A DNA stretch of 64,000 nucleotides, taken from positions 9,932-73,931 of the forward strand of contig DASZAB010000134.1 in NCBI GenBank assembly GCA_035945675.1, written 5' to 3'. Of this stretch, positions 3,307 to 53,732 are shown one piece after another (position 1 is the first letter of the stretch; every line of letters starts with the position of its first letter). Source of the stretch: Verrucomicrobiia bacterium. GTDB lineage: Bacteria > Verrucomicrobiota > Verrucomicrobiia > Limisphaerales > UBA11358. The notes below the pieces were generated by a model that was given only the letters and a program-made list of their open reading frames with translations, did not search any database and had not been told where the DNA came from. Both the position numbers and the translations under genes were made by a program.

Positions 3307-3386
3307 GGTGGGGCGAGGCTGCTGGCGGGTTGTCGCCGCTTCGCTTCGGCGTGCCAAGTCCGGCTCGCGGGGACGCTCGCCCCCCC
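3307..3386. repeat. GC-rich nested palindromic element (GGGGCGAG...CTCGCCCC family), intergenic copy
   Basis: GGTGGGGCGAGGCTGCTG...GGCTCGCGGGGACGCTCGCCCCCC. The reverse complement of the purL copy at 14528-14599 aligns to it at both ends. Confidence 0.7.
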
Positions 3387-9339: not shown

Positions 9340-9768
9340 ATGGCCAAGAAACCAGCAATCATCAGCACGCCGTTGCCTGAAGTCACTCAGGTCGCGGAAT
9401 CGGTGGAGCAACATTTTGACCGCCTCCTGTCGCACGACCAATTCAAAATCCTGAAAGCCGTCCTGGACCAGTTGCAAATGGACGCCACGGCGATGCACGG
9501 CGCGATTGTCACGACCAACTCTTATCGGAATTTTTTGAGCAAGCTGGGGTATCGCCTCATCCTCGTGCCGCAAATCCATGAGCAGGACTGCTACTCCCGG
9601 ATGGGCCCGGCCGGCGGCATCCGCGCCGTGCTGCCGGTTCACGACATTGCCACCTACAGCACGCTGGTCACCCTCGTGAATTACGATACGACGGTGACCA
9701 CCACCCCGAAATCCATGGACTACTACGATGACCGGCTGGCGGAATTCAAGACCCAGCTGATGAAATAG
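9340..9768 (+). CDS. Hypothetical protein (142 aa), no recognisable domain
   Basis: High GC3 and a balanced amino-acid composition. The overlapping minus-strand ORF 9211-9846 is R/H/G-rich shadow-like sequence. The 3' end overlaps the convergent flavoprotein gene by 23 bp. Confidence 0.5.
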   Translation: MAKKPAIISTPLPEVTQVAESVEQHFDRLLSHDQFKILKAVLDQLQMDATAMHGAIVTTNSYRNFLSKLGYRLILVPQIHEQDCYSRMGPAGGIRAVLPVHDIATYSTLVTLVNYDTTVTTTPKSMDYYDDRLAEFKTQLMK

Positions 9769-11155
9769 ATCCGGAAACAACGGGAGACGAAACCTCGTCA
9801 CGTCCTGTCCCCCGGGCACCTTTTCCCGCCATGGCCCGTCCGGCAATCCAACCGGTCGTCCAGGCCGCCTGGAAATTGAAGCCCCCGGTCAGGCCGTCAA
9901 TGTCCAGCACCTCGCCGGCAAAAAACAGTCCGGGGCAAATCCGGCTCTCCATGGTGCTGAAATTTACCTCGCTCAACCGGACTCCGCCGCACGTCACGAA
10001 CTCATCCTTGTTCAGACTCTTCCCGCTCACGGTAAATTCCGTGCGCCGCAACTGGTCAACGAGCTTGTGCTGCGCCGCCCGCGAGAGCGCCGACCATCTC
10101 GTCGTGCGCGAGATACCGGAGGCCTGGACGAGCTGTGCCCAAAGGCGCGCCGGCAGCGAGGGGATGGGCGAATTGACGATCATTTTTGCCGACTGCGAAT
10201 TACGTCGCGATTGAAATTCCCCCGCGAGCTTTTCCGCGTTCAGCGGCGGCAGCCAGTTCACCTGGAGCGGAAAGGAATAATTCAGTTCGTGCAACTGCCG
10301 CGCGCCCCACGCCGACAACCGGAGAATGGCCGGGCCGCTCAGACCCCAATGCGTCACCAACAGCGCCCCGCGCTCGCGGAGTTTTGTTTCGGGCACGGAC
10401 ACTTCGGCCATTTCGACCGACACGCCGGCCAGCTCCCGCAGCCACGGTGTTTCGATGTGAAATGTGAACAACGAGGGCACCGGCGGTTCCAGCGTGTGAC
10501 CGAGCGAAACCGCCAGTTGCCCCAACGCGGGGGTCCGGCAGCCGCCCGTGGCCAGTAAAATTTTGTCACAAATGATTCCCTCCTTCGCGAATTCCTCTCC
10601 CGCGCCCCGCCTGGGCGGGGCGAGGGGATTTGATCTTAATGACCTCCCCGCCACGGCCCGCTCCTCCGGTGGCGGAGGAGCGGGGGAAACATTTCTTGCG
10701 AGCGTCATCTCAAAACGTCCGTCCGGCTTTCTGGTGACGTTTTCCACGCCGCAATTCGTGATCAACTTCACGTCCGCCCGGCGCGCCGCGCCGAGCAGAC
10801 AATCCATGATCGTCTGCGACGAATCCGTCACGGGAAACATCCGGCCGTCGCCCTCGGTTTTCAGTTTCACACCGTGGGCGGCGTACCAGGCCACGGTATT
10901 GCTCGCCTGAAACTGCTTGAACGGCCCAATCAAGGCCCGCTCGCCCCGGGGAAAACGGGCGGCAAATTCGCGTTCATCAAAACAGGCGTGGGTGACGTTG
11001 CACCGGCCGCCGCCGGAAATTTTGACCTTGGAAAGAAATTGCGATGTTTTTTCGAAGATGAAAATTTCAGCGCCGCTTTCAGCTTCCGCGCACGCCAGCG
11101 CGGCAAAAAAACCGGCCGCGCCGCCGCCGACAATCCCAATCCGCTTCGAGTGCAT
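9746..11155 (-). CDS. HI0933/BaiN-family NAD(FAD)-utilising flavoprotein carrying an internal repeat-element insertion
   Basis: Start at MHSKRIGIVGGGAAGFFAALACAE (dinucleotide-binding GxGxxG). GGGRCNVTH is the HI0933 family signature. The segment NVSPAPPPPEERAVAGRSLRSNPLAPPRRGAGEE is encoded by the hairpin element at 10596-10686. Confidence 0.8.
   Translation of the reverse strand: MHSKRIGIVGGGAAGFFAALACAEAESGAEIFIFEKTSQFLSKVKISGGGRCNVTHACFDEREFAARFPRGERALIGPFKQFQASNTVAWYAAHGVKLKTEGDGRMFPVTDSSQTIMDCLLGAARRADVKLITNCGVENVTRKPDGRFEMTLARNVSPAPPPPEERAVAGRSLRSNPLAPPRRGAGEEFAKEGIICDKILLATGGCRTPALGQLAVSLGHTLEPPVPSLFTFHIETPWLRELAGVSVEMAEVSVPETKLRERGALLVTHWGLSGPAILRLSAWGARQLHELNYSFPLQVNWLPPLNAEKLAGEFQSRRNSQSAKMIVNSPIPSLPARLWAQLVQASGISRTTRWSALSRAAQHKLVDQLRRTEFTVSGKSLNKDEFVTCGGVRLSEVNFSTMESRICPGLFFAGEVLDIDGLTGGFNFQAAWTTGWIAGRAMAGKGARGTGRDEVSSPVVSGSISSAGS
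10596..10686. repeat. Twin GC-hairpin element inside the HI0933-family flavoprotein CDS
   Basis: Hairpin 1 is CGCCCCGC-ctg-GCGGGGCG, flanked by CTCTCCCG/GAGGGGA. Hairpin 2 is CCCGCTCCTCCG-gtgg-CGGAGGAGCGGG. Both stems are perfect. Confidence 0.7.
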
Positions 11156-12316: not shown

Positions 12317-14830
12317 ATGACCGAACCCGCCATCACCCCCGAACTGGTTGCCCAACACAACCTCACGCCCGACGAGTATCAGAAAATCCTCGACCTGCTG
12401 GGCCGGGTGCCGAGTTACACCGAACTGGGCATCTTCTCGGTGATGTGGAGCGAGCATTGCAGCTACAAAAATACCCGCCCGCTGCTCAAAACCTTTCCGA
12501 CCAAATCCAGGAAAATCCTCGTCGGCGCCGGCGAGGAAAACGCCGGCATCATTGACATCGGCGACGGCCTGGCCATCGCCTTCAAGATTGAGTCGCATAA
12601 TCATCCGAGCGCGGTTGAACCGTTTCAGGGCGCGGCCACCGGCGTCGGCGGCATCGTGCGCGACATCTTCACCATGGGCGCGCGGCCGATTTGCTCGGTG
12701 AATTCGCTCCGTTTCGGACCGATTGTTAAGGATGTAGCAGCGGACGTTAGTCCGCTCACTTCAAATTCCGAAAAAAGTCAGAGCCGACTCACGTCGGCTG
12801 CTACGAATGGGGAAGCTGAAGCCGCCCTGAAGAACAATCGCCGGCTCTTTGCCGGCGTGGTGGCCGGCATCGCGCATTACGGCAATTGCTTCGGCATTCC
12901 GACCATCGCGGGCGAGGTCTATTTCGACAAATCCTACGAAGGCAATCCACTGGTGAACGCCTTTTGTCTGGGTGTGTTGCGGCACGAGCAAATTGCGCGC
13001 GGCGCGGCCAAAGGCATCGGCAATCCGGTTTTCTACGTCGGCCCGCCCACGGGCCGCGACGGCCTCGCCGGCGCCGCGTTCGCATCGCAGGATTTGACCG
13101 AGGAATCCGCCGAGCAACAGCGCGGGGCGGTCCAGGTCGGCGATCCGTTCATGGAAAAGCTCGTGTGCGAGGCGTGCCTCGAATTACTGGCCACCGGCGC
13201 GGTCGCCGGCATCCAGGACATGGGCGCGGCCGGGCTGACCTGCTCAACGTGCGAGACCGCCGCCCGCGCGGGCACGGGGATTGAAATCGAATTGGACAAG
13301 GTGCCGCAACGCGCCCCGAACATGACGAGCTACGATCTCATGCTGTCCGAATCGCAGGAACGGATGCTCATCATCGTCCATAAAGGCCGCGAGGACGAAG
13401 TCAAACGCATCTTTGACAAATGGGATTTGCCGTGGTCGGAAATCGGTTTCGTCACCGACACCGGCCGTATGGTCGTGAGACAGCACGGCCGGGTCGTCGC
13501 CGACATCCCGGCCAGAAAAATCGCCGACGAATCACCGGTTTATCAGCGTGAAGCACAGGCACCGCAGTATTTGAAGGAAGTGCGGGCGTTCCGACTTGAT
13601 GGGGTTGCCGATTGTCAAAGGCCGATGGCCGATTTGAAAAGGCTTTTGTCGTGGCCGACCATTGCCTCGAAGAACTGGGTTTACCGGCAGTACGACCACA
13701 TGGTGCGCGACGGTTCGGCGGTTTGCCCCGGCAGCGACGCCGCGGTGCTGCGGATTAAATCTGACTCTTTGCCTGAACTTGGCCGGGGCGGGCGGCCGCT
13801 CGGCCAGGACGCGCCGTTCACCCCGGATGCTTTCGGGGCGGGGCGCGTGCCGGCCGTCTCCGAAAAACTCATCGCGCTGACGGTGGACGGCAATGGTGCT
13901 TACGTCTATCTCGATCCCTACGAAGGCGGGAAAATTGTTGTGGCCGAGGCGGCGCGGAATCTGGCCTGCTCCGGTGCCGCTCCGCTGGGAGTGACGGACA
14001 ATTTGAATTACGGCAATCCGATGAAACCGGAATTATTCTGGCAGCTCAAGGAATCCGTGCGCGGGCTCGCGGATGCCTGCCGGGCATTCAACGCGCCGGT
14101 GACCGGTGGCAATTGCTCGCTCTATAATCAGAGTCCGGCCGGATCGATTGACCCCACACCGACCGTCGCGATGGTCGGCCTCATCGAAAAACCGGAGCAT
14201 ATCACGACGCAATGGTTCAAGGACGAAGGTGACACCATTATCCTGCTCGGTGAACCGGTTGACACCGACGATCCATTGCTCGGCCTCGGCGGCTCGGCCT
14301 GTTTACAGGCGATCCATGGAATGAAAACCGGCGTGCCGCCCCGTTGTGATCTGGAAACGGCAAAAACGCTGCACACGACGCTGCTCGGCTTGATTCAAAG
14401 CGGCCTGGTGAAAAGCGCGCACGATTGCAGCGAAGGTGGACTGGCGGTCTGCCTTGCCGAAAGCTGCATCAGCCAGCTCGTCGCGCGCGAAACGCCAAGG
14501 CTGATTGGGGCAACCGTGGATTTGTCCCCGGTGGGGCGAGCGTCTTCGCGAGCCGATGGACAAGGGAACGTCGGCTCGTCAGCAGCCTCGCCCCACCGGA
14601 TTGACGCCCTGCTCTTTGGCGAAACCCAAAGCCGCGTGGTCATCACCTGTCAGCCGCTCGATGCGGTGAAAGTAATCGAGCGCGCGAAGCTGATGGGCGT
14701 TCCGGCGGTGCCCATCGGCAAAGTCGGCGGTGACCGGTTGATGATCAAGACCGTCGCCGGCGAATTTGGCGCCCCGGTAACCGAATTGCACGACGCCTGG
14801 TGGAACGCCATCGCGCGGGCGATGGCATAG
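12317..14830 (+). CDS. purL: Phosphoribosylformylglycinamidine synthase subunit PurL (FGAM synthase II)
   Basis: Start at [24 protein letters not shown]. Motifs HCSYK, ESHNHPS and [13 protein letters not shown]. Full-length two-repeat PurM-like architecture. Contains three extra segments encoded by palindromic elements (see the repeat features). Confidence 0.92.
12734..12804 (+). repeat. Twin-hairpin element (GTAGCAGC...GCTGCTAC family), copy 1, in frame in purL
   Basis: GTAGC-AGCGGAC-gtta-GTCCGCT-C ... G-AGCCGAC-tcac-GTCGGCT-GCTAC. Two perfect 7-bp hairpins separated by 23 nt. Confidence 0.8.
13781..13860. repeat. GC-rich palindromic element, second insertion in purL
   Basis: Inverted arms GGCCAGGACGCGCC (13802-13815) and GGCGCGTGCCGGCC (13842-13855), with an inner hairpin CCCCGgatgctttCGGGG. 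Confidence 0.6.
14528..14599. repeat. GGGGCGAG...CTCGCCCC family element, third insertion in purL
   Basis: Perfect 13-bp terminal inverted repeat CCGGTGGGGCGAG / CTCGCCCCACCGG. Inner perfect hairpin CGAGCCGA...TCGGCTCG. Confidence 0.8.
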
Positions 14831-18136: not shown

Positions 18137-18221
18137 AAAAATTCAAAATTAAAACTGCAGAATTTGGAACCCGACCGCGCGAACCACAGCTGCCAATTTT
18201 TAGTTTTTAATTTTTAATTTT
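18137..18221. repeat. AT-rich inverted repeat with a ~6-nt periodic arm (AAAATTAAAA type) between the ABC-2-like gene and the first SPFH gene
   Basis: The left arm AAAAATTCAAAATTAAAACTGCAGAATTTGG pairs with the right arm CCAATTTTTAGTTTTTAATTTTTAATTTT around a GC-rich loop. Confidence 0.65.
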
Positions 18222-28532: not shown

Positions 28533-30296
28533 GTGACGAAAAAACATTCCAGTGAACGCCCGCTTGCGGGGACAAGGCCACGTGGCAATAACCCGCTGCG
28601 GGTCGGCCTGATTTCGCTCGGTTGCGCCAAGAATCTCGTGGATGCCGAAATCATGCTTGGTTCGCTCCTGAAAAGCGGCGTGGAAATCACCAATGACGCC
28701 GCCCAGGCCGACGCCGTCATCGTCAACACCTGCTCATTCATCGACTCCGCGCAGGAGGAAAGCGTGGACGCCATCCTTGAATCCGCTGAAGTCCGCGAGG
28801 TGAACCATCGCGGCCAGGGCTTGATTGTCGCCGGCTGCCTGTCGCAGCGTTTCCGCGAGGAGCTGCCCAAACTCCTGCCCGAAGTGGATGCGTTCATGGG
28901 CATTGACCAGGTCGCGCAGGTCGCGGAGATCGTAAAGCAAGCAGTTCAAAACCGGCAAAACAAAATCGGCAAACATTCAACGTCCAACATTGAACGTCGA
29001 ACCTCAAAGGGAAAAATCACCGGACGATTGGCTGAATTGGAAAAAAAACGCGCCGATGGCGAATATGAAAAATCCGGGTCCGTCCGCCGTGCCGAAAAAG
29101 TTGGCAAAACCAAAACCGTCATCGTGCCGCCCTCGACCCTCGACTCTCAACCCTCGACCCTCCTGGATGTCAGCCGGCGCCCGACCTTTATCCCCGATTT
29201 TGCCACCCCGCGCTTCCGCCTGACGCCCAGGCACTTCGCCTACGTTAAAATCGCCGAGGGCTGCAACCATCCGTGCAGTTTTTGCATCATCCCGCGGATG
29301 CGCGGTTCGCACCGCAGCCGGCCACAGGCGGACATTGTCGCCGAGGCAAAGGCACTGCTCGCCGACGGCGTGAAGGAAATCAATCTGATTTCGCAGGACT
29401 CGACCTACTACGGACTCGATTTACGACCCGATCATTCGCGGGCAATTTCGTCGCCGGAGAAATTTTCCGCCGCTGCCGAATCGCTGGCCGCCGATGCCAC
29501 GACCATCTGCACGTTGCTGCGCGAGTTGAATTCACTGCCCGGCGATTTTTGGATTCGCCTGCTCTACACCCATCCGGCCCACTGGACAGACGAGCTCATC
29601 CGGACCATCGCCGAATGCCCGAAGGTCGCACGCTACGTGGACATCCCGCTTCAGCACATCCACGAAAACATGCTGGAACGGATGCGCCGCGAAACCTCAC
29701 AGCCATACATTGTGGATCTCATCCAACGCATCCGGGCCGGCGTGCCGGGGATCGCGTTGCGGACGACGTTCATTGTTGGTTTCCCGGGCGAAACCGGGGC
29801 GAGTTTTGAAGCGCTGCTCAACTTCATCCGCGAAACCAGATTTGAGCGGCTCGGTGTGTTCACCTATTCCAAAGAAGAGGGCACGCGCGCCGGCGCCATG
29901 GCCGGCCAGATTCCCGACAAAGTCAAGAGGCGCCGGCGCGAACTGGCCATGGCCGAACAGCACAAAATCGCCCGGCAAATTTGCGAATCCTTCGTCGGCC
30001 GCGAAATCAAAGTGCTCGTTGAAGGCAAAGCGGAGGCAAAACAGTTGCAGGCCGCGAAAGTCAGTTCCTGGGAGCACGGCCTCGTCCGCGAAGGTGATTC
30101 TCGACACTCGACACTCGACACTCGACACTTTTTAATGGCCCGAGGTCAGGCTGATGCGCCGGACATTGATGGGCGGGTTTATATCCGCGGCCGGTTGCCG
30201 ATTGGCGGATTTGCCCGCGTCAAAGTCATCGGCCACACGGATTACGATTTAGTTGCCGAACCGGTCTCTGCCGCCATACTGCGGCGGCCTAAATGA
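28533..30296 (+). CDS. rimO: Ribosomal protein S12 methylthiotransferase RimO (radical SAM MTTase) with large repeat-derived insertions
   Basis: GTG start. MTTase N-domain LISLGCAKNLVDAE. Radical SAM cluster CNHPCSFCIIP. C-terminal TRAM domain. An extra ~75-100 aa lies between the N-domain and the radical SAM core. Confidence 0.85.
   Translation: MTKKHSSERPLAGTRPRGNNPLRVGLISLGCAKNLVDAEIMLGSLLKSGVEITNDAAQADAVIVNTCSFIDSAQEESVDAILESAEVREVNHRGQGLIVAGCLSQRFREELPKLLPEVDAFMGIDQVAQVAEIVKQAVQNRQNKIGKHSTSNIERRTSKGKITGRLAELEKKRADGEYEKSGSVRRAEKVGKTKTVIVPPSTLDSQPSTLLDVSRRPTFIPDFATPRFRLTPRHFAYVKIAEGCNHPCSFCIIPRMRGSHRSRPQADIVAEAKALLADGVKEINLISQDSTYYGLDLRPDHSRAISSPEKFSAAAESLAADATTICTLLRELNSLPGDFWIRLLYTHPAHWTDELIRTIAECPKVARYVDIPLQHIHENMLERMRRETSQPYIVDLIQRIRAGVPGIALRTTFIVGFPGETGASFEALLNFIRETRFERLGVFTYSKEEGTRAGAMAGQIPDKVKRRRRELAMAEQHKIARQICESFVGREIKVLVEGKAEAKQLQAAKVSSWEHGLVREGDSRHSTLDTRHFLMARGQADAPDIDGRVYIRGRLPIGGFARVKVIGHTDYDLVAEPVSAAILRRPK
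28976..29001 (+). repeat. Short wobble-palindrome inside rimO
   Basis: TTCAACGTCCAAC-a-TTGAACGTCGAA. The arms are complementary apart from A:C oppositions on the + strand, which become G:U pairs on the - strand. Confidence 0.55.
29130..29163 (+). repeat. CCCTCGA(C) micro-tandem tract inside rimO
   Basis: CCCTCGACCCTCGACTCTCAACCCTCGACCCTCC, translated PSTLDSQPSTLL. Confidence 0.6.
30100..30129 (+). repeat. Perfect (CTCGACA)x4 heptamer tandem repeat inside the rimO TRAM region
   Basis: CTCGACA CTCGACA CTCGACA CTCGACA CT, translated SRHSTLDTRHF. Confidence 0.85.
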
Positions 30297-31741
30297 GTAA
30301 ACCATCCAAATCACAATGGGACTTCGGTGAGTTGTTTCCAACAGAAGCAACGCGAAAAGTTTTATCCGTCTCGGAATTGACGGCGCAGGTCAAGCGGTTG
30401 CTGGAAAAACAGGTCGGCTCGGTCTGGGTGACGGGCGAGGTCACCAACCTGCGCGCGCAGAGTTCCGGCCACATGTACTTCACACTCAAGGATGCCGAGG
30501 CACAATTGAACTGCGTTCTGTTCCGGGGCGAGGCGGTGATGAACCGCAGTGCGTTGCAGGACGGCCAAAAGGTTCTCCTGCAAGGCGATGTGACGGTTTA
30601 TGAGGCGCGCGGCCAATACCAGCTCATTGTGCGAGCGGTCGAGTTGCAAGGCGTCGGCGCGCTGCAAATCGCCTTTGAGAAGCTCAAACAAAAGCTGGCC
30701 GCGGAAGGATTATTCGCACCGGAACGGAAGCGTCCGTTGCCGAAATATCCGCAACGCATCGGCCTGGTCACGTCGCCGACCGGCGCGGCGATTCACGACG
30801 TGCTGCACGTCGTGCAACGGCGGAATCCGGCGCTGGAAATCATCCTCGCGCCATGCCGCGTGCAAGGCGACGGCGCGGCAGCGGAAATCGCGGCGGCCAT
30901 CCGGCTGCTCAACGAATTCAATTCCCGTGGCAGCGGACGTCAGTCTGCTCCATCTGAACGTGAGAGCCGACGCACGTCGGCTGCTACAACAGAAATAGAC
31001 TTAATCCTGGTGACGCGCGGCGGCGGTTCGCTGGAAGATTTGTGGGCGTTCAACGAGGAAGCCGTGGCGCGGGCAATTTTTGAGTCGACCATTCCCGTGG
31101 TGTCGGCGGTCGGGCATGAAATTGATTTCACCATCATCGATTTTGTGGCGGATGTACGAGCGGCCACACCGAGCGCAGCGGCGGAAATCGTTACCGAAGG
31201 CGTATTCGCCAGCCGCGAGTTCGTGGCCGAAGCACCGGGCGTGCTGCAGCGAATCGTCCGGCAACGGCTGGAAGGTGTCACCGCGGAATTCGAGCAGCTC
31301 CAGGGCCGGTTGACGCGGGCGCATCCCCGCCGGCGATTGAATGAATTCCTGCAACGGCTGGACGATTTGCATTCCGGCCTGTTGCGTTGCGCAAAACAGG
31401 GAGCCAAAGGGCGGCAGCTGGCCTGGCATAATCTGGCCACGCGGCTTTTGCGCGTGCGCCCGGCGCATTTGTTGAAGCAACGGCGCGAGCTGTTGCAGGC
31501 GACCCGGCACCGCCTGAGCGAACTGACGCAAGGCCATTGGCGAACGTGGCAAAATCGTTTCCACGCCACGGAGGCGCGGCTGCGTTTGCTCGGTCCGGAG
31601 CAGGTCTTATCACGCGGCTATTCCATCACGACGGACGCCGTGACGGGAACGGTTTTGCGCGAAGCCGCCAAAGTCAAAACCGGTCAACGCTTAAAAACGC
31701 GGCTAAAAACCGGCGAAATCTTCAGCCGGACCGAGGAATAA
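30293..31741 (+). CDS. xseA: Exodeoxyribonuclease VII large subunit
   Basis: OB-fold N-terminus (VWVTGEVTNL...SGHMYFTLKD). RGGGSLEDLWAFNEE motif. Start overlaps the rimO stop (ATGA). Confidence 0.9.
   Translation: MSKPSKSQWDFGELFPTEATRKVLSVSELTAQVKRLLEKQVGSVWVTGEVTNLRAQSSGHMYFTLKDAEAQLNCVLFRGEAVMNRSALQDGQKVLLQGDVTVYEARGQYQLIVRAVELQGVGALQIAFEKLKQKLAAEGLFAPERKRPLPKYPQRIGLVTSPTGAAIHDVLHVVQRRNPALEIILAPCRVQGDGAAAEIAAAIRLLNEFNSRGSGRQSAPSERESRRTSAATTEIDLILVTRGGGSLEDLWAFNEEAVARAIFESTIPVVSAVGHEIDFTIIDFVADVRAATPSAAAEIVTEGVFASREFVAEAPGVLQRIVRQRLEGVTAEFEQLQGRLTRAHPRRRLNEFLQRLDDLHSGLLRCAKQGAKGRQLAWHNLATRLLRVRPAHLLKQRRELLQATRHRLSELTQGHWRTWQNRFHATEARLRLLGPEQVLSRGYSITTDAVTGTVLREAAKVKTGQRLKTRLKTGEIFSRTEE
30927..30987 (+). 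repeat. Twin-hairpin element (GTAGCAGC...GCTGCTAC family), copy 2, in frame in xseA
   Basis: GTGGC-AGCGGAC-gtca-GTCTGCT-C ... G-AGCCGAC-gcac-GTCGGCT-GCTAC. The spacer is 13 nt rather than 23. Confidence 0.8.
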
Positions 31742-42659: not shown

Positions 42660-45302
42660 ATGATGAGTGTTAAAACCATTCTCTTTGTTGAAAACGACGC
42701 GGTTTCACAAAGTCTGTACCAAAAACGCTTGGAGCGCGAAGGCTTTCACCTTGAATGCGCCCAGGACGGCCAGGTCGCCATCGATATTCTCTCCGACCAT
42801 GCTCCGGATCTGGTTTTGCTTGACCTGATGCTGCCGCGGGTCAGCGGCGCCGACGTGCTCAAATTCATGCACGCCGATCCACGCCTGACGACCGTTCCTG
42901 TCATCATTTTTTCCAACGCGGCGATGACAGAGGTGCCGCCGGACAGTCCCCTGGCCCAGGGCACCAAACGTTTGCTTAAAAGCGATTGTACTTTTCCCAG
43001 GCTGCTCGAAACCATTCAGGAGACGCTTGCCGCAACCCCCGAATTGGTGGTGGTCGAAGCCGGCAAAGCGTCCTCGGCCAAGCCAGTGCCGGCGCACAAC
43101 GGCAAAGGGGAAGGCAAAACCGCACACGCTCACTCCCTGCCGGCCACTGAACTTGAAGGCAAGGCCACGAAAGCGCGCGCGGATTTTTTAAAAGAAGCCG
43201 TGGCGGTCATGCCCAAGCTTCGGGAGCACAGCATGGGATACATAAAGGCACCCGACTCGGACGCAAGTCGGGCTCATTTATCCGGCCTTCACCAGCGTGT
43301 GCAGCTGTTGAATACCGCTGCCGCCCAGGCCGACTGCGCCCGCGTTGGGCTGCTGACCAGCGCATTTGATGCCTTGCTTTCGGGAATTGCGGACAAGCCC
43401 TCGACGATTACCCCATCGGTGTTGCAGACCATCGCCCAGGCGGTGGACTGTCTGGATGGCTTGTTGAAGAATACCGACGGTTATTCCATGGGCCCGGCAT
43501 TCCAGGCCAAGGTATTGGTCGTGGACGATGACGCCGTCTGCAATCATGTCAACGTGACCTCCCTTAAGCGGGCCAATTTCGATACCGTAGGGATCAAGGA
43601 TCCGGCGGCGGCCCTGAGCCTGATGGAAACCACCCAATACGATCTGGTCGTCCTGGACATCAACATGCCCGGCATGACCGGTTTCGATGTGTGCGAGAAA
43701 CTGCGCCGTTTGCCTCATTGCAAGAAAACGCCGGTGATTTTTGTCACGGCCTTCAGCAATTTCGACAACCGCAAACAGAGCGTCCTCAGCGGCGGTAATG
43801 ATTTCGTCTCCAAGCCGGTTTCCCCCGTGGAACTGGCGCTGAAAGTAAGCGTCAATTTAATCAAGGCGCGAGTGCAAGGCACCCAGGCTCCACAATTGGA
43901 GGCCCCGGCCGCTGCGGCCAACGGTTCCTCCCACAAACCTCAACCTGTAGCCAAGACCAAAACGGATCGGCAAATCTCAACCGAAGTGCCACCCCCGGCA
44001 CCCCCCTCGCATATGACACCAACTCCTGAGCGGAGCACCAGAAACCCCAGAACGGCTGGTCCTCTTCCCGAGATACAGTCCGAACCTGAACCGCATCCCG
44101 CTGACCCGTCCGAATCCACCCCACGACCGAAGGCTGCCGCTCGAACCGGCCCGGAGGACAATGGTGGAACCCCCAGTGCGGAAATTCATGAGCGCCTGCG
44201 CCGAAGCACCGCAGGATTGGAAAACGCCAAAGCCAATCTGGAACAGGAATCGGCGGAACGAACGCGCATTGAATCGCAATGGCGCGAACAATTGAATGCC
44301 GCCAAGGCACTGATCGGGCAAACGGAAACCATTCTCAAGGAAAGGGAGGCCCGGTGCAGCAAGCTGGAAGAGGAATTGGCCGGTTTGCGAAATGTGCGGG
44401 ATGAACTCCAGGGCAAACTTGCGGCCGAACAACAAGCGATTGCGAAGTCCCAACTGGAAATCAAGGCTTTCCAGGAACGCCAAAGTCAGAGTACCGCGGA
44501 ATTAGCGCGCGCCAAAACCGCCCTGGAACAGCAATCCGCTGAGCGAACGCGTTTGGAATCGGAGTGGCGCGAGCAGTTGAATACGGTGAAGGCGGCAGCC
44601 GGCCAGACGGGAACCGCCCTGAAGGAAAAGGAGGTCCGGTGCAACCAGTTGGAAAAGGAGTTGGTTGAATTGCAGGAAGCACGCGACGAACTTCAGAACA
44701 AGCTCGTCACCGGGCAAAAGACGACTGAGAAGTTGCAACAGGAAATCAAAGAACTTCAGGCCGGTTTGGGGCAGCAAACGGCCGAACGAATGCGCCTGGA
44801 ATCAGAATGGCGCGTGCAACTGAAGGCGGTGCAGGCGGCCGCCACCCAAACGGAAACCGCGCTCAAGGAAAAAGAAGGCCGGTGTGGCCAGTTGGAAAAG
44901 GAATTGACCGGATTGCGTCAGGTTCGTGATGAACTTCAGAGCAAGTTTGCGGCCGAACAACAGGCCGTGACGAAATCCCATCAGGAGATTAAAGAACTCC
45001 AGGAACGGTTGCGCCAGGGCGGCGCAGATCTGGAACGCGCCAGGGCCAGCCTGGAACAGGAATCGACCAAACGGGCGCGCTTGGAATCGGAGTGTAAAAC
45101 CGTGGCGGATGCCAGGGAGGCGCTGAATTTGGAATTGCGCAGCTTGCGCGAGCGACAGACGGCACGCGAAGCCGAATTGCGGGACCGGCAAAAGAAACTG
45201 GTTGAGGGTTTGCGCGAAAATATGCACCACTTACAAGCGAGATTGCAGGAGGTGGAAACCTTTGGCAGCAATCTCGGTGACGCATCCGGCGGAAAAGCCT
45301 GA
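42660..45302 (+). CDS. REC - HPt-like - REC - Pro-rich linker - tandem coiled-coil repeat protein
   Basis: REC1 (LVLLDLMLP) is degenerate. An HPt-like four-helix segment follows (LSGLHQRVQLLNTAAAQA). REC2 is canonical (VLVVDDD...VVLDINMPGMTG...FVSKP). Four repeats of 81-95 aa (ERTR[IL]ES[EQ]WREQLN...) follow. Confidence 0.8.
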   Translation: MMSVKTILFVENDAVSQSLYQKRLEREGFHLECAQDGQVAIDILSDHAPDLVLLDLMLPRVSGADVLKFMHADPRLTTVPVIIFSNAAMTEVPPDSPLAQGTKRLLKSDCTFPRLLETIQETLAATPELVVVEAGKASSAKPVPAHNGKGEGKTAHAHSLPATELEGKATKARADFLKEAVAVMPKLREHSMGYIKAPDSDASRAHLSGLHQRVQLLNTAAAQADCARVGLLTSAFDALLSGIADKPSTITPSVLQTIAQAVDCLDGLLKNTDGYSMGPAFQAKVLVVDDDAVCNHVNVTSLKRANFDTVGIKDPAAALSLMETTQYDLVVLDINMPGMTGFDVCEKLRRLPHCKKTPVIFVTAFSNFDNRKQSVLSGGNDFVSKPVSPVELALKVSVNLIKARVQGTQAPQLEAPAAAANGSSHKPQPVAKTKTDRQISTEVPPPAPPSHMTPTPERSTRNPRTAGPLPEIQSEPEPHPADPSESTPRPKAAARTGPEDNGGTPSAEIHERLRRSTAGLENAKANLEQESAERTRIESQWREQLNAAKALIGQTETILKEREARCSKLEEELAGLRNVRDELQGKLAAEQQAIAKSQLEIKAFQERQSQSTAELARAKTALEQQSAERTRLESEWREQLNTVKAAAGQTGTALKEKEVRCNQLEKELVELQEARDELQNKLVTGQKTTEKLQQEIKELQAGLGQQTAERMRLESEWRVQLKAVQAAATQTETALKEKEGRCGQLEKELTGLRQVRDELQSKFAAEQQAVTKSHQEIKELQERLRQGGADLERARASLEQESTKRARLESECKTVADAREALNLELRSLRERQTAREAELRDRQKKLVEGLRENMHHLQARLQEVETFGSNLGDASGGKA

Positions 45303-45483: not shown

Positions 45484-45559
45484 GTCCCCGTAGCTCAAAT
45501 GGATAGAGCAGCGGTTTCCTAAACCGCGTATCCCAGTTCAATTCCGGGCGGGGACGCCA
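45484..45559 (+). tRNA. tRNA-Arg (anticodon CCU), with genomically encoded CCA
   Basis: Perfect 7-bp acceptor stem (GTCCCCG/CGGGGAC). D arm GCTC-AAATGGATA-GAGC. Anticodon stem GCGGT/ACCGC with loop TTCCTAA. T loop TTCAATT. One A:C mismatch in the T stem. Confidence 0.8.
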
Positions 45560-49639: not shown

Positions 49640-51973
49640 ATGATTGCCCGAGTCAGTCTGGAAATCGCGCTCCGCAAGGAATTTGATTATCTGATTCCGC
49701 CCGGATTAGCGGAACAAATTGAGGCCGGCAGCCGCGTGCAGGTGCCGTTTGGCGCACGGAAGGTTTTTGGGACCGTCACCGCACTCGTGGAGGAATCGGC
49801 CTTTGCGAAGCTCAAACCCATTCTGAAAGTCATCGGCGCACAATCGCTCGTCACGCCGAAAGTGTTGAAATTGGCGCGCTGGATTGCCGATTATTACTGT
49901 TGTGCGCCGGAAATCGCGCTGAAATCCGTCCTGCCCGAAGCCGTGCGCAAAAAGGAGGGAGGCTGGAAGAAACAACTATTCGTCCGTGCGCTGACGGTTG
50001 GCGGCGAATTTCCGAAGCTGCCGAAACGCCAGCAGGAAGTCTGGAACCTCATCGAAGAGCGACGCGAATTGCCGCTGACGGAACTGGTCGAGCTGGCCGA
50101 AACCACGGCCACCACCGTCCGGAAGCTCGAAGACCGCGGTCTGGTGGAAGTCACTGCGGAAATTTCCGAACGCGATCCCTACGCGCACGAACATATTCTG
50201 CCGACGCAACCGCTGTCCTTGAACCCGGCCCAATCCGTTGCGCTGGAGAAAATTAAAAGCCGGATATCGGAAGTCAGAAGTCAGAAGCCGGAAACCGGAA
50301 GTCTGACCTCCGACCTCCGACCACCGACTTCCGTCTTCCTCCTCCACGGCGTCACCGGCTCCGGCAAAACCGAAGTTTATCTCCAGGCCCTCGCGCACGC
50401 GCTCGAACAGGGCCGGGGTGCCATTGTGCTGGTGCCGGAAATTTCACTCACGCCACAGACCGTCGAACGATTCAAGGCGCGCTTCAGTTCCGGCAAACTC
50501 CAGACCCTCGTCGCGGTTTTACATTCGCATCTTTCCGCCGGTGAACGGCACGACGAGTGGCACAAAATTCGCCAGGGTCGTGCCCGCATTGTGATTGGCG
50601 CGCGCTCGGCAATTTTTGCGCCGGTCGAGCCGCTGGGGCTGATCATTGTGGACGAGGAGCACGAGCACACTTACAAGCAGGAGGAAGCACCGCGTTACCA
50701 CGCGCGCGACGTGGCCATCATGCGCGGCCGGATGGAAAACGCCGTCGTCGTACTCGGCTCGGCCACGCCGTCGCTCGAAAGCTATTACAACTGCAAAAGG
50801 GGCAAATACACCTTGCTCGAACTTCCGGAACGCGTGGATAACCAGAAAATGCCGCATGTCCGCGTCGTGGACATGCGGCAGGCGGCCAGGGAAAAAGGGC
50901 CGCCGATTTTTTCACCACAACTCAAGGAAGCTATCACGCAAAGGCTCGAGCGCGGTGAGCAGACGATTTTATTTTTGAATCGGCGCGGTTATTCCACAGC
51001 CCTGCAATGCCCGAAGTGCGGATTCGTTGCGAACTGCCCGAATTGCAGCCTCGCGCTGACTTACCATCGCATCGAACAAAGGCTATCCTGCCACATTTGC
51101 GGCCATAACGAGAAAGTTCCGTCCGTTTGCCCGAACGGGAAATGCAAAAACCCGGCCATCCGTTTTGCCGGCACCGGTACGCAAAAAGTCGAGGAAACGC
51201 TGGCGAAACTGTTTCCCGACGCCCGCGTCCGGCGCATGGACGCCGACACGATGAAACGCAAAGACGATTACCGGAAAACGCTCGGCGACTTTCGCGCCGG
51301 CAAGACCGACATCCTGGTCGGCACGCAGATGATTGCCAAGGGATTGCATTTCCCGAACGTAACGCTCGTGGGCATCATTTACGCCGATCTCGCGCTGCAT
51401 CAGCCGGATTTTCGCGCCGGCGAGCGCACTTTCCAGCTCCTCACCCAGGTGGCCGGACGCGCCGGACGCGGCGACGTGGAAGGCGAAGTGTTTGTGCAGG
51501 CGTTCGCACCGTTTCATCCCGCCATCCAATACGCGCGCCGCCATGATTTCACGGGTTTTTACGAACAGGAAGTCGAGTTCCGCGAGCAATTGAAATACCC
51601 GCCCGTCAGCCGGGTCGCGTTGCTCACGCTCAAAGGCCGCAACGAAGACAAGGTGAAATTTTCTGCCGAACATTTGAAACGCGAATTGGAGAAGAACCTG
51701 ACGGGTGTGGAACCCCTCTCCTGTCCCGCGGACACCCTCTCCCCACCCGGCGGGGAGAGGGCCGGGGCGAGGGGCGCATTCAAGGATTTAATACTCGCCG
51801 GACCCGCGCCGGCGCCGTTGTTGCGCGCGGAACAATATTATCGCTACCAAATCATGCTGCGAACACGCGCGATGAGCAAACTCAGCCAGAGGCTGGCGAA
51901 AATCATCGAAACACTCGCGTTACCGGACGATGTAACATTATCAGTGGACATTGACCCGGTGAATTTAGGATGA
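49640..51973 (+). CDS. priA: Primosomal replication-restart helicase PriA
   Basis: Walker A GVTGSGKTEVY. DEEHE box. Cys-rich zinc region CPKCGFVANCPNCSLALTYH...CHICGH. Two extra segments are encoded by repeat elements (50268-50333 and 51713-51774). Confidence 0.92.
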   Translation: MIARVSLEIALRKEFDYLIPPGLAEQIEAGSRVQVPFGARKVFGTVTALVEESAFAKLKPILKVIGAQSLVTPKVLKLARWIADYYCCAPEIALKSVLPEAVRKKEGGWKKQLFVRALTVGGEFPKLPKRQQEVWNLIEERRELPLTELVELAETTATTVRKLEDRGLVEVTAEISERDPYAHEHILPTQPLSLNPAQSVALEKIKSRISEVRSQKPETGSLTSDLRPPTSVFLLHGVTGSGKTEVYLQALAHALEQGRGAIVLVPEISLTPQTVERFKARFSSGKLQTLVAVLHSHLSAGERHDEWHKIRQGRARIVIGARSAIFAPVEPLGLIIVDEEHEHTYKQEEAPRYHARDVAIMRGRMENAVVVLGSATPSLESYYNCKRGKYTLLELPERVDNQKMPHVRVVDMRQAAREKGPPIFSPQLKEAITQRLERGEQTILFLNRRGYSTALQCPKCGFVANCPNCSLALTYHRIEQRLSCHICGHNEKVPSVCPNGKCKNPAIRFAGTGTQKVEETLAKLFPDARVRRMDADTMKRKDDYRKTLGDFRAGKTDILVGTQMIAKGLHFPNVTLVGIIYADLALHQPDFRAGERTFQLLTQVAGRAGRGDVEGEVFVQAFAPFHPAIQYARRHDFTGFYEQEVEFREQLKYPPVSRVALLTLKGRNEDKVKFSAEHLKRELEKNLTGVEPLSCPADTLSPPGGERAGARGAFKDLILAGPAPAPLLRAEQYYRYQIMLRTRAMSKLSQRLAKIIETLALPDDVTLSVDIDPVNLG
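50268..50333 (+). repeat. Heptamer-periodic hairpin element (AGAAGTC / GACCTCC family), in frame in priA
   Basis: Left arm CGGAAGTC AGAAGTC AGAAGCC GGAAACC; right arm GACCTCC GACCTCC GACCACC GACTTCCG. The outer 8 bp pair perfectly. Confidence 0.8.
51713..51774. repeat. GC-rich CCCTCTCCCC/GGGGAGAGGG hairpin element, in frame in priA
   Basis: Perfect hairpin CCCTCTCCCC-acccggc-GGGGAGAGGG, nested in CCCCTC...GAGGGG. Translated LSCPADTLSPPGGERAGARG. Confidence 0.75.
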
Positions 51974-52302: not shown

Positions 52303-52857
52303 TCATTTTTTCAATCCCCTTTGCCACAAATCGAAATGATACAACGCGACGACGACAAGGGAATGGCCGATTTTTTCGTCGGAGACGAGTTTCGGAATTT
52401 CCGCCACCGGCACTAACCGCGTCACCAAATCCTCGGCATGGTCCCAATCCACCTTGTGTTTCAGCCGGCAATTTTCAATCAGCACGGTGTAGGTAAAGTT
52501 GCTCATGATGGCCGGGTTGGACCAGATTTTGCCGAGCAGGCGCGCGTTTTCACCTTCGTAGCCGGTTTCCTCGCGCAGTTCGCGCACGGCAGTCGCTACC
52601 GGTTCGGTCTCGCCCGGATCCATCATGCCGCCGGGAATCTCCAATTCGATGGTGTTCGAGCCGTGCCGGAATTGCTCGACCATCACGAGCTGCTGGTCAG
52701 GCGTAACGGCGATGACGTTGACCCAATTGACGCTGTCGAGAACATAAAAATCATGCGCCTTGCCGGTGCGCGGTGAAATGCTCACGTCGGAGCGCAGCTT
52801 GAAGACGCGGAAATCGCCGATGGGCGTCGAGCGGATTTTTTTCCAGGGCCTGATCAT
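52303..52857 (-). CDS. NUDIX hydrolase (ADP-ribose pyrophosphatase-like)
   Basis: Nudix box GGMMDPGETEPVATAVRELREETGY. Confidence 0.85.
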   Translation of the reverse strand: MIRPWKKIRSTPIGDFRVFKLRSDVSISPRTGKAHDFYVLDSVNWVNVIAVTPDQQLVMVEQFRHGSNTIELEIPGGMMDPGETEPVATAVRELREETGYEGENARLLGKIWSNPAIMSNFTYTVLIENCRLKHKVDWDHAEDLVTRLVPVAEIPKLVSDEKIGHSLVVVALYHFDLWQRGLKK

Positions 52858-52950
52858 TTACGATTTATGATTTACGATTGACGATTGACGTCAACACAAA
52901 CCGCTTCCGCCACGAAGGGCAATCATAAATCATCAATCGTAAATCATAAA
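52858..52950. repeat. Inverted pair of AATCGTAAAT-type elements between the NUDIX gene and the small gene
   Basis: The left arm TTTACGATTTATGATTTACGATTGACGATTGACG pairs with the right arm CAATCATAAATCATCAATCGTAAATCATAAA. Read on the minus strand, the left arm gives AATCGTAAATCATAAATCGTAA-ATG, directly before the NUDIX start. Confidence 0.75.
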
Positions 52951-53135
52951 TGTTTTGGCGCTGCCCAACCCTGACGCATAAGATTCAGCAAGTGTTTGAG
53001 CGCCTCGTCGTAGGAGCGGCCTTTTTGTTCGGCCAGCTGGCGGGCGCGCTTATCCAGTTGCGCGGCCATTTCGGCGGATTTTTCGGCAGGACAGCCGAGC
53101 GCTGCCAGGGTTTTGGCCAGTTCAGAAATTTCCAT
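52944..53135 (-). CDS. Small hypothetical protein (63 aa)
   Basis: MEISELAKTLAALGCPAEKSAEMAAQLDKRARQLAEQKGRSYDEALKHLLNLMRQGW. Helical, good GC3, no family recognised. The start was chosen to exclude the upstream repeat element. Confidence 0.4.
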   Translation of the reverse strand: MEISELAKTLAALGCPAEKSAEMAAQLDKRARQLAEQKGRSYDEALKHLLNLMRQGWAAPKHL

Positions 53136-53141
53136 AAAACT

Positions 53142-53212
53142 GTGGCAGTGGACGTCAGTCCGCTCCAATTTTGGACAAAATTCAATATGAGCCGACTCAC
53201 ATCGGCTGCTAC
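53142..53212 (+). repeat. Twin-hairpin element (GTAGCAGC...GCTGCTAC family), copy 3, intergenic
   Basis: GTGGC-AGTGGAC-gtca-GTCCGCT-C ... G-AGCCGAC-tcac-ATCGGCT-GCTAC. Lies between the ppiB stop and the small-gene start. Confidence 0.8.
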
Positions 53213-53216
53213 AAAA

Positions 53217-53732
53217 TCATTTCCCGGCGTCGGCGGAAACGATGTTGATGCTGATGACGCCAACCCGTTTCTGCGGCTTGCTCTGCTCGCCGGAACCACC
53301 GGAGCCCACCGGCGTGCCGGCGATCTTCGCCAACACGTCATCGCCTTTGATCAACTTGCCGAACGCGGTGTATTGGCGGTCCAGAAACGAGGCGTCGCCG
53401 TCACAGATGAAAAACTGGCTGCCGGCGGAATCAGGGTTCGCACTGCGCGCCATGGAAATGACACCGCGTTGGTGGGAGCGGTCGTTGAACTCGGCCCGGA
53501 TCTGGTAGCCCGGCCCGCCCGTGCCCCAACGATTTTCGGCAGCCGGATCTTTCGTCAGCGGGTCGCCGCCTTGAATCATAAAGCCCTTGATGATGCGGTG
53601 AAAACAGGTGCCGTCATAAAAACCTTTTTGGGCGAGGGTTTTGAAATTTTCGACGGTCTTGGGCGCAACGTCGGGCCAAAATTCAATGACCATTTCGCCT
53701 TCGGTGGTGGTGATGTGGGCAAGTTCACTCAT
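53217..53732 (-). CDS. ppiB: Cytoplasmic cyclophilin-type peptidyl-prolyl isomerase
   Basis: FHRIIKGFMIQGGDP and SMARSANPDSAGSQFFI motifs. 171 aa. Confidence 0.9.
   Translation of the reverse strand: MSELAHITTTEGEMVIEFWPDVAPKTVENFKTLAQKGFYDGTCFHRIIKGFMIQGGDPLTKDPAAENRWGTGGPGYQIRAEFNDRSHQRGVISMARSANPDSAGSQFFICDGDASFLDRQYTAFGKLIKGDDVLAKIAGTPVGSGGSGEQSKPQKRVGVISINIVSADAGK

Follow-up and report, generated by a model that had tools for sequence, protein, structure and literature searches.

A 64,000-nt stretch of contig DASZAB010000134.1 (positions 9,932 to 73,931 of the forward strand; Verrucomicrobiia bacterium, assembly GCA_035945675.1), analysed here in full and called the window below, carries a purL gene whose reading frame runs through a palindromic segment of 71 nt, with related segments inside xseA and between genes. 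The locus raises the question of what this segment is and how it came to lie in frame inside a gene. The element is a dimer of GTAG-type repetitive extragenic palindromic (REP) sequences, a class left unnamed by the first-pass annotation that had pointed the segment out, since a GTAG beside a short stem-loop, arranged in spaced inverted pairs, is what defines such dimers in the sources on which the definition is based (PMC3733652; PMC3337134). It is very probably non-autonomous and mobile (a REPIN), and most probably rides as a tolerated, in-frame passenger in a loop of PurL.

The coordinates and sequences that the first-pass annotation had given for all three stretches were reproduced when the window was re-read (Table 1). 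Copy 1, in purL, reads GTAGC-AGCGGAC-GTTA-GTCCGCT-C, a 23-nt spacer, and G-AGCCGAC-TCAC-GTCGGCT-GCTAC; its ends are 24-nt inverted repeats with two mismatches, each end contains its own 7-bp hairpin, and a single G-C/C-G swap separates the two 7-bp stems. All window dimers consist of two facing arms of the form 5'-GTAG-C-(7-bp stem)-(4-nt loop)-(stem)-C with 13-23 nt of spacer between them. The arm, a 24-nt GTAG-tagged unit beside a short stem-loop, has the layout of a GTAG-type REP, for which unit lengths of 20-40 nt are given, and two such units, inverted, separated by a short spacer and able to fold as one long hairpin, have that of a REPIN. Arm patterns matched the window 5 and 4 times, where shuffles of the sequence led to an expectation of 0.01 and 0.00. 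When a covariance model of 58 distinct arms was applied to the window with filters off, six arms and no more were recovered, at 32.6-43.3 bits (E values of 3e-7 to 6e-5), the next best hit scoring ≤13 bits; the window therefore holds three dimers and zero solo arms, the number of copies proposed at the outset. The Rfam covariance models contained no family that matched the element in the window, and the sole match at gathering threshold was a tRNA at 45484-45556.

In all three copies a CGGAC-type arm lies on the left of the + strand and a CCGAC-type arm on the right. The claim that the copies share one orientation therefore holds for the + strand but not relative to transcription, because the genes neighbouring copy 3 are encoded on the - strand and this copy is inverted with respect to them. 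Conceptual translation of copy 1 gives 24 residues that lie downstream of LRFGP, and that of copy 2 gives (R)GSGRQSAPSERESRRTSAAT, which uses the other permitted frame than the purL copy. Copy 3 lies between the stop of a cyclophilin open reading frame (ORF; 53217-53732, - strand) and a possible ATG at ~53135 of a small ORF, for which no protein family match was obtained.

To place the element in a family, one genome per species was scanned for either arm, and at least 117 loci (L001-L117) were obtained from dozens of metagenome-assembled genomes (MAGs). The copies come from independent assemblies of many projects, and nearly all are labelled Verrucomicrobiota, Verrucomicrobiae/-iia, Limisphaerales, Pedosphaera or subdivision 3, so that the element appears to be confined to this verrucomicrobial group. 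Some element-bearing contigs carry the labels Bifidobacteriaceae, Bifidobacterium or Klebsiella (L010, L022, L029, L042, L043, L047, L051, L066, L073, L089, L097, and L099); these are probably mislabelled bins, because the distribution of the element is otherwise verrucomicrobial. Among the loci listed, to which the counts of dimers and of 243 arms below refer, 99-100 complete inverted dimers of 58-94 nt (mostly 70-71 nt) and ~37 unpaired arms were found. The arm start was strongly conserved over the 243 arms, with G1 in 237, T2 in 234, A3 in 212 (G in 29, giving GTGG as the main variant) and G4 in 237.

Within these arms, the seven stem pairs were 93-99% paired, and the middle one (pair 9-20) was C-G in 131 arms, G-C in 103 and mismatched in 9. 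In the 58 distinct arms, 97% of cells pair and six of the seven pairs show changes on both sides; none of 500 shuffles attained the observed values, and controls with slid partners paired in 24-37%. A G-type arm is combined with a C-type arm in 74 of 99 dimers, like with like in 22, and the long hairpin of the unlike pairs therefore contains two built-in mismatches. Despite these, the long hairpin is the minimum-energy fold of the whole element as RNA (-29 to -35 kcal/mol; z-scores -4.5 to -6.7); for the purL copy, it is predicted at -35 kcal/mol, against -25 kcal/mol for the twin-hairpin form. Covariation was nonetheless confined to the inside of each arm, with none between arms, and because unlike arms also mismatch the long hairpin, the conserved structure is a pair of local 7-bp hairpins, in agreement with the architecture first drawn for the element.

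Target-site duplications were absent: in the 99 dimers, flank identity over 1-8 nt was not above permutation, with zero matches of ≥4 nt. The flanks of these dimers (L001-L117 and the window) are biased in composition, the two bases before GTAG being pyrimidines in 83 and 76 copies and the two bases after CTAC purines in 80 and 79. With this bias, YY-GTAG...CTAC-RR, the inverted symmetry reaches 2 nt further out, and the added bases may mark a cleavage or target site.

The PurL linker that contains copy 1 is short in other lineages, as the first-pass annotation had stated. It spans ~5 residues in Thermus PurL (PDB 3viu), against ~38 at this site in the window PurL, and the stretch from LRFGx to LxxGVV has 8 residues in most of the distant lineages among 80 metagenome purL loci. 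Over 120 PurLs that are 79-100% identical to the window PurL, the linker ranges from 13 to 89 residues; it is 41 residues long in the window and 13-20 in relatives without the insert, as expected of the in-frame insertion that had been suggested. The shortest linkers are ITNGEPENANNRR (P0035), ITGENGAQSQVANNKR (P0060), and ITNGKSEIGNRKSEIANNRR (P0006), and in P0006, which lacks the element, just 4.9% of core positions deviate from the window protein. The element is present at the same place in ~70 of the 120 orthologs, where ...SRLTSAAT is nearly constant and adjacent linker residues vary freely. None of the PurLs from other phyla that were examined for the segment carries it.

Comparison of purL DNA from the window, L120, and L122 placed the insertion point at the identical nucleotide in all three, with similar spacers. 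The left arm of L120 has four differences from that of the window, which amount to two compensatory pair swaps, whereas its right arm is identical at 24/24 positions, the two PurLs being ~83% identical; the L122 arms are of the sister type. Other close relatives have quite different peptides in the linker, including VGDDVRSL...SLVTSTPT, PPHPGPLPP...GGEGRGEGE, GSARASRAA..., GRAGCPQP...GGDTAPYQ, ECGVRSAES..., and plain heptamer arrays. The number of gains and losses was not resolved by a neighbour-joining tree of the 120 PurLs, which was nearly star-like. For PurL, AlphaFold2 modelling on 39 aligned sequences gave a low mean predicted local distance difference test score (pLDDT, 35.7), because the homologs used were all ≥79% identical; the variability in length suggests that the loop is exposed at the surface.

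Further repeats were seen in purL and its relatives. Many short tandem arrays with a 7-nt period occur in the window, at 18195, 22200, 29130, 30100, 50257-50333, 52856-52951, and 56228. In close relatives without the REP dimer, the purL linker is taken up, in frame, by such arrays, namely (GGAAATC)n and (GCGGAAA)n (L201, 10391-10477; L124, 339-425). Distant PurLs from other phyla (L170, L171, L182, L189, L194, and L197; 45-47% identical) have Pro/Arg-rich extra linker peptides, for example ...GDSPVPVERSSAV... and ...SDADRNVRAT..., which resemble further repeat insertions, specific to their lineages, in this loop. The window purL has a second in-frame palindromic block (14528-14599), whose inverted arms of 29 nt are separated by 14 nt. 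It is one of another dispersed family, whose members were seen between genes at 3307-3386, in L007, L036, L064, and L095 at unrelated positions, and in L123, L131, and L201 where the window purL has it. A third block of variable length lies at ~13765-13870, in which 29 nt (13786-13814) are 86% complementary to 2909-2937, a stretch within a palindrome that is GTAG-tagged on the - strand; L120, L121, and L200 have similar sequence at the corresponding purL site.

A second host gene is xseA. Comparison of the window XseA with that of E. coli (PDB 8txr) gave a clean break, the window protein having 22 residues more between positions 196 and 196 of the chain. The element was scored at this site in 18 of 120 orthologs, with slightly altered versions in a few more, and in an ortholog that is 78% identical (L037) it was seen in the DNA at that site. 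In the XseA orthologs P0241-P0360, the loop after AIRLLN also contains at least six other repeat-like peptides (VAAVCDRR...MRRSQTAAT, SRSRGNETH...LLTSSPT, VGQASRLSP...RQAGSLSY, SQVGSSRCDDRTAQRAVPT, HISEGRVIRAPD...GARGARPS, and VGVQASAC...SKLKLELQ), and is only 13 residues long in others.

Across the family, intragenic copies were common. Frames open for ≥60 codons on both sides enclose 41 of the 99 dimers, against 66% of random 71-nt windows from these loci, an intragenic depletion of only ~1.6-fold. Two translations dominate, VAADVS[PR]L...QSRLTSAAT and xSSGRESA...QSRLTSAAT, the G-TAG frame being closed. Real genes account for the nine largest host frames, and encode, among others, UvrA (two loci), MutS, a DEAD-box helicase, xanthine dehydrogenase, a FabA-domain protein, and an M28 peptidase. 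In each of the two uvrA genes, which come from different MAGs, two in-frame copies are present (L013, 695-765 and 1646-1716; L001, 237-307 and 1706-1774), which echoes the double REP inserts reported for both uvrA genes of Opitutus terrae (PMC3733652).

Candidates for the mobilising enzyme, a REP-associated tyrosine transposase (RAYT), were found in related DNA. The census loci, at least 117, contained one, on L015, an ORF of 192-206 residues with the HUH motif DHLHLVW and the tyrosine motif FYVLANPVR, flanked by a GTAG palindrome unlike that of the element. The gene was matched by E. coli RayT in tblastn at E 0.006, and a Pfam search of its protein gave no match; it has 1289 homologs, many of which bear the JGI name "REP element-mobilizing transposase RayT". 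The best 120 of these 1289 formed ~15 clusters, and flanks were taken for representatives of nine. All nine were flanked by GTAG palindromes that change with the cluster, which suggests that enzyme and repeat diversified together. At the RAYT-like loci L015, L202, and L205-L213, examples of such palindromes are GTAGCCGCGCTTGTGAAAGCGCGG, GTAGCTGCGTTTGTGAAAACGCAG, GTAGCCGCCGA(C/G)GT.A(C/G)GAGGCGG, and GTAGGAGTCGAGGTCACGAGACTC. The palindromes around one other cluster, on L206, match the arms of the alternative PurL insert VGDDVRSL...SLVTSTPT.

The element itself flanks a gene of cluster 1. On L212, the RAYT-like gene at 255-860 lies between type-A REPs at 121-144 and 185-208 upstream and 866-889 downstream, with more, slightly diverged REP copies on both sides, the arrangement of a RAYT gene between its own REPs that is called a REPtron; P0204 (L213), of the same cluster, has flanking REPs that share this unit layout and whose stems are compensated. 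The L212 protein, P0221, has the HUH motif DHIHLVW and the conserved tyrosine motif FYILANPVR, both nearly invariant among 33 homologs, and aligned to the whole NCBIfam profile NF047646 (REP-associated tyrosine transposase) at E 1e-13 (51.5 bits). The RAYT-like proteins gave whole-profile matches of E 1e-13 to 1e-15, below the curated cut-off.

By analogy with known REP systems, a RAYT of the HUH/Y1 type, encoded once elsewhere in the genome, would recognise the single-stranded hairpins and cut and join them, and transposition of this type would leave no target-site duplication. One dimer would have landed in a PurL loop whose length varies widely among lineages, and would have survived there because GTAG...CTAC is stop-free in the frame in which it is read and an insert of this length leaves the downstream frame intact. 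Transcription and translation of the segment would then add 24 residues to PurL, most probably as a tolerated passenger. The xseA copy would be explained in the same way, and copy 3, just 3' of a gene, would occupy the usual place of a REP.

Several features were also weighed under other explanations. The 24-nt terminal inverted repeats, the small size, the many dispersed copies and the ability of the whole element to form one long hairpin are those of a classical miniature inverted-repeat transposable element (MITE), a deletion derivative of an insertion sequence (IS) that is moved by a DDE transposase and duplicates its target site. We regard a MITE as very improbable, however, given that none of the 99 copies has a target-site duplication, that each terminus is a GTAG-tagged hairpin with covariation internal to the arm, and that the gene flanked by these ends encodes a RAYT-like HUH enzyme rather than a DDE transposase. 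Still less credible, and close to negligible, is a segment that was never mobile, in which a low-complexity or palindromic linker evolved locally and its likeness to other sequences reflects convergence or an assembly artefact. The same loop is indeed variable in length in several phyla and is filled by simple heptamer arrays in some relatives; but the six window arms and >240 arms elsewhere share a 24-nt consensus, for which the chance expectation in the window is ~0.01, and the census contradicts an artefact, the copies having been assembled independently in many projects. Readings as an intein, an intron or a CRISPR were rejected, since size and architecture do not fit.

Two further explanations accept the mobile REP dimer and differ in what happened after its arrival. 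Selection may since have co-opted it, keeping either the hairpins in the purL and xseA mRNAs or the peptide, for mRNA stability, translational pausing or a useful linker. The near constancy of ...SRLTSAAT amid a variable linker, the identity of the right arms of the window and L120 together with the compensatory swaps in their left arms, and the stable predicted RNA fold would be in keeping with co-option. The same sequence, however, occurs in unrelated genes and between genes, the closely related P0006 does without it, and other relatives have quite different repeats at this spot. Selection on the peptide is disfavoured because the arm changes keep pairing rather than amino acids (SPL to SRR), and both arm subtypes exist genome-wide, so that copying from other copies explains the swaps equally well; co-option is accordingly doubtful. 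Somewhat more plausible, if still unlikely, is that the linker that follows LRFGP in PurL and the loop that follows AIRLLN in XseA are long-lived docking sites at which a resident REP dimer is overwritten, arm by arm or whole, by the family of the current RAYT, in which case the REP/RAYT system, and not independent chance insertions, would drive the hypervariability of these loops in essential enzymes. The data fit either repeated independent insertion at a few tolerant spots or overwriting of a resident copy, and the three purL DNAs cannot decide between these because unrelated members of the family have similar spacers too.

A number of observations weigh against a mobile dimer carried as a neutral passenger. 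REPs usually lie between genes, just 3' of an ORF, whereas only one of the three window copies is intergenic, and the 41 of 99 dimers in open frames contradict an extragenic habit; intergenic location is, however, a habit of REPs and not a structural criterion, with exceptions recorded in PMC3733652. The 24/24 identity of the right arms in the window and L120 is not obviously expected of a purely neutral passenger. A clean empty site was sought in the insert-free orthologs L200 and L201 and none was found; because their linkers differ in other ways as well, they do not fix the exact inserted unit or its boundaries. The 64-kb window contains no RAYT detectable by tblastn with E. coli RayT and a verrucomicrobial RAYT, or by a hidden Markov model from 120 homologs, and the putative cognate enzyme comes from related DNA only. 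P0221 falls short of the curated NF047646 cut-off of 80 bits, and as a single sequence gave no Pfam match and no meaningful PDB match. A mobile REP dimer, tolerated in frame, nevertheless remains by far the most probable account.

The nearest known relatives lie in the same phylum. A catalogue of GTAG and CGTC palindromes by Di Nocera, De Gregorio and Rocco (2013; PMC3733652) describes intragenic REPs in several species, with intragenic GTAG repeats most numerous in O. terrae, where dimers encode 20-30 residues. According to the same catalogue, uvrA and other repair genes frequently act as hosts, there is often a preference for dimers of unlike units, about the same recB site is occupied by different REPs in two Xanthomonas species, and two inserts are listed in the large PurL of O. 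terrae. In-frame GTAG REP dimers in Verrucomicrobia were thus already published in 2013. As described there, the O. terrae GTAG-17 to GTAG-20 REPs share with the present element the phylum, the unit of GTAG and short stem-loop, the inverted dimers, often of unlike units, and the in-frame copies of 20-30 residues, in hosts that include uvrA, helicases, exonucleases, and phosphoribosylformylglycinamidine synthase. The peptides listed for O. terrae (VGPALAAG, HGRDARAT, and VAGVADPG) and the stem and loop sequence are unlike those of this element, the host here is Limisphaerales/Pedosphaera-like and not Opitutus, and the O. terrae PurL is the large form of 1438 residues with inserts at other positions (PMC3733652). 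Because the encoded peptides differ, the element looks like a further family from another order of the phylum, set apart from those of O. terrae by the listed peptides and not by a full consensus list. Relative to the picture published in that catalogue, what is added is that the same PurL and XseA loops appear, from their sequences, to hold different repeat families in close relatives.

Other systems are more distant. The REPIN-RAYT systems described for Pseudomonas and Enterobacteria (Bertels and Rainey 2011, PMC3116915, PMC3337134), E. coli RayT b0228 included, have, as here, an inverted REP pair with a spacer, a single-copy RAYT between its own REPs and a correspondence of RAYT lineage and REP family. 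They are described as extragenic, whereas about four in ten of the copies sampled here are intragenic, and E. coli RayT is only distantly similar to the RAYT-like proteins found here (E 0.006 for the L015 gene; P0221 below the NCBIfam cut-off). Rickettsia palindromic elements (RPEs), the classical parallel among in-frame palindromes, are also palindromic and lie in frame in genes that likely still encode working proteins, but are unrelated in sequence, RPE-4 and RPE-6 being placed in the CGTC and not the GTAG class (PMC3733652). Their hosts, unlike those here, are obligate intracellular Alphaproteobacteria. RPE-1 is longer, at about 100-150 bp, and no association with a RAYT is known. Bacterial MITEs that contribute peptides to proteins, such as those of Coxiella burnetii (PMC5896051), are, like the present element, small, non-autonomous, hairpin-forming and sometimes located in coding sequence. 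MITEs have IS-derived terminal inverted repeats and usually target-site duplications, however, and neither an IS parent nor a duplication was found here.

Table 1. REP dimers, their arms and host genes in the 64-kb window (positions are those of the window).
Feature	Position	Strand	Remarks
REP dimer copy 1, 71 nt	12734..12804	+	in frame inside purL, 24 residues
Left REP arm, copy 1: GTAG-C-AGCGGAC-GTTA-GTCCGCT-C	12734..12757	+	covariance model 40.4 bits; arm alone -12.6 kcal/mol
Spacer, copy 1, 23 nt, ACTTCAAATTCCGAAAAAAGTCA	12758..12780	+	resembles L120 and L122 spacers at the same purL site
Right REP arm, copy 1; - strand reading GTAG-C-AGCCGAC-GTGA-GTCGGCT-C	12781..12804	-	covariance model 43.3 bits; -12.3 kcal/mol
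REP dimer copy 2, 61 nt, in frame inside xseA	30927..30987	+	covariance model; 22 residues more than E. coli XseA
REP dimer copy 3, 71 nt, intergenic	53142..53212	+	4 nt past stop of - strand cyclophilin gene
purL host gene (small PurL / FGAM synthase II), intact 837-codon frame	12317..14830	+	Pfam PF18072, PF00586, PF02769
xseA host gene (exodeoxyribonuclease VII large subunit)	30293..31741	+	comparison with E. coli XseA

Two other regions of the window also contain repeats. The gene for an HI0933-like flavoprotein (9746-11152, - strand) encodes ~70 extra residues between its two Pfam domains, and the extra DNA contains two nearly perfect short palindromes (10599-10626 and 10657-10684), separated by ~30 nt, possibly a further twin-hairpin insert that is in frame but of a different family. 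At 44181-45094, a unit of 243-285 nt is repeated three to four times in tandem with 67-73% identity, presumably as the repeats of a protein domain.

The assignment provides a sequence that recurs widely in Limisphaerales-type Verrucomicrobiota with a name and a likely mobilising enzyme, and it explains the odd peptides VAADVSPL...SRLTSAAT and xSSGRESA...SRLTSAAT in annotated proteins. Length differences in purL, xseA, uvrA, and mutS can accordingly be read as repeat insertions, and not as errors or new domains. REPIN-RAYT systems have been studied mostly in Proteobacteria; in the lineage examined here there are several RAYT clusters, to each of which a REP family of its own belongs, the share of in-frame copies is unusually high, and orthologous intragenic copies show compensatory arm swaps. 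Such copies could be used to test whether the transposase keeps REPs uniform.

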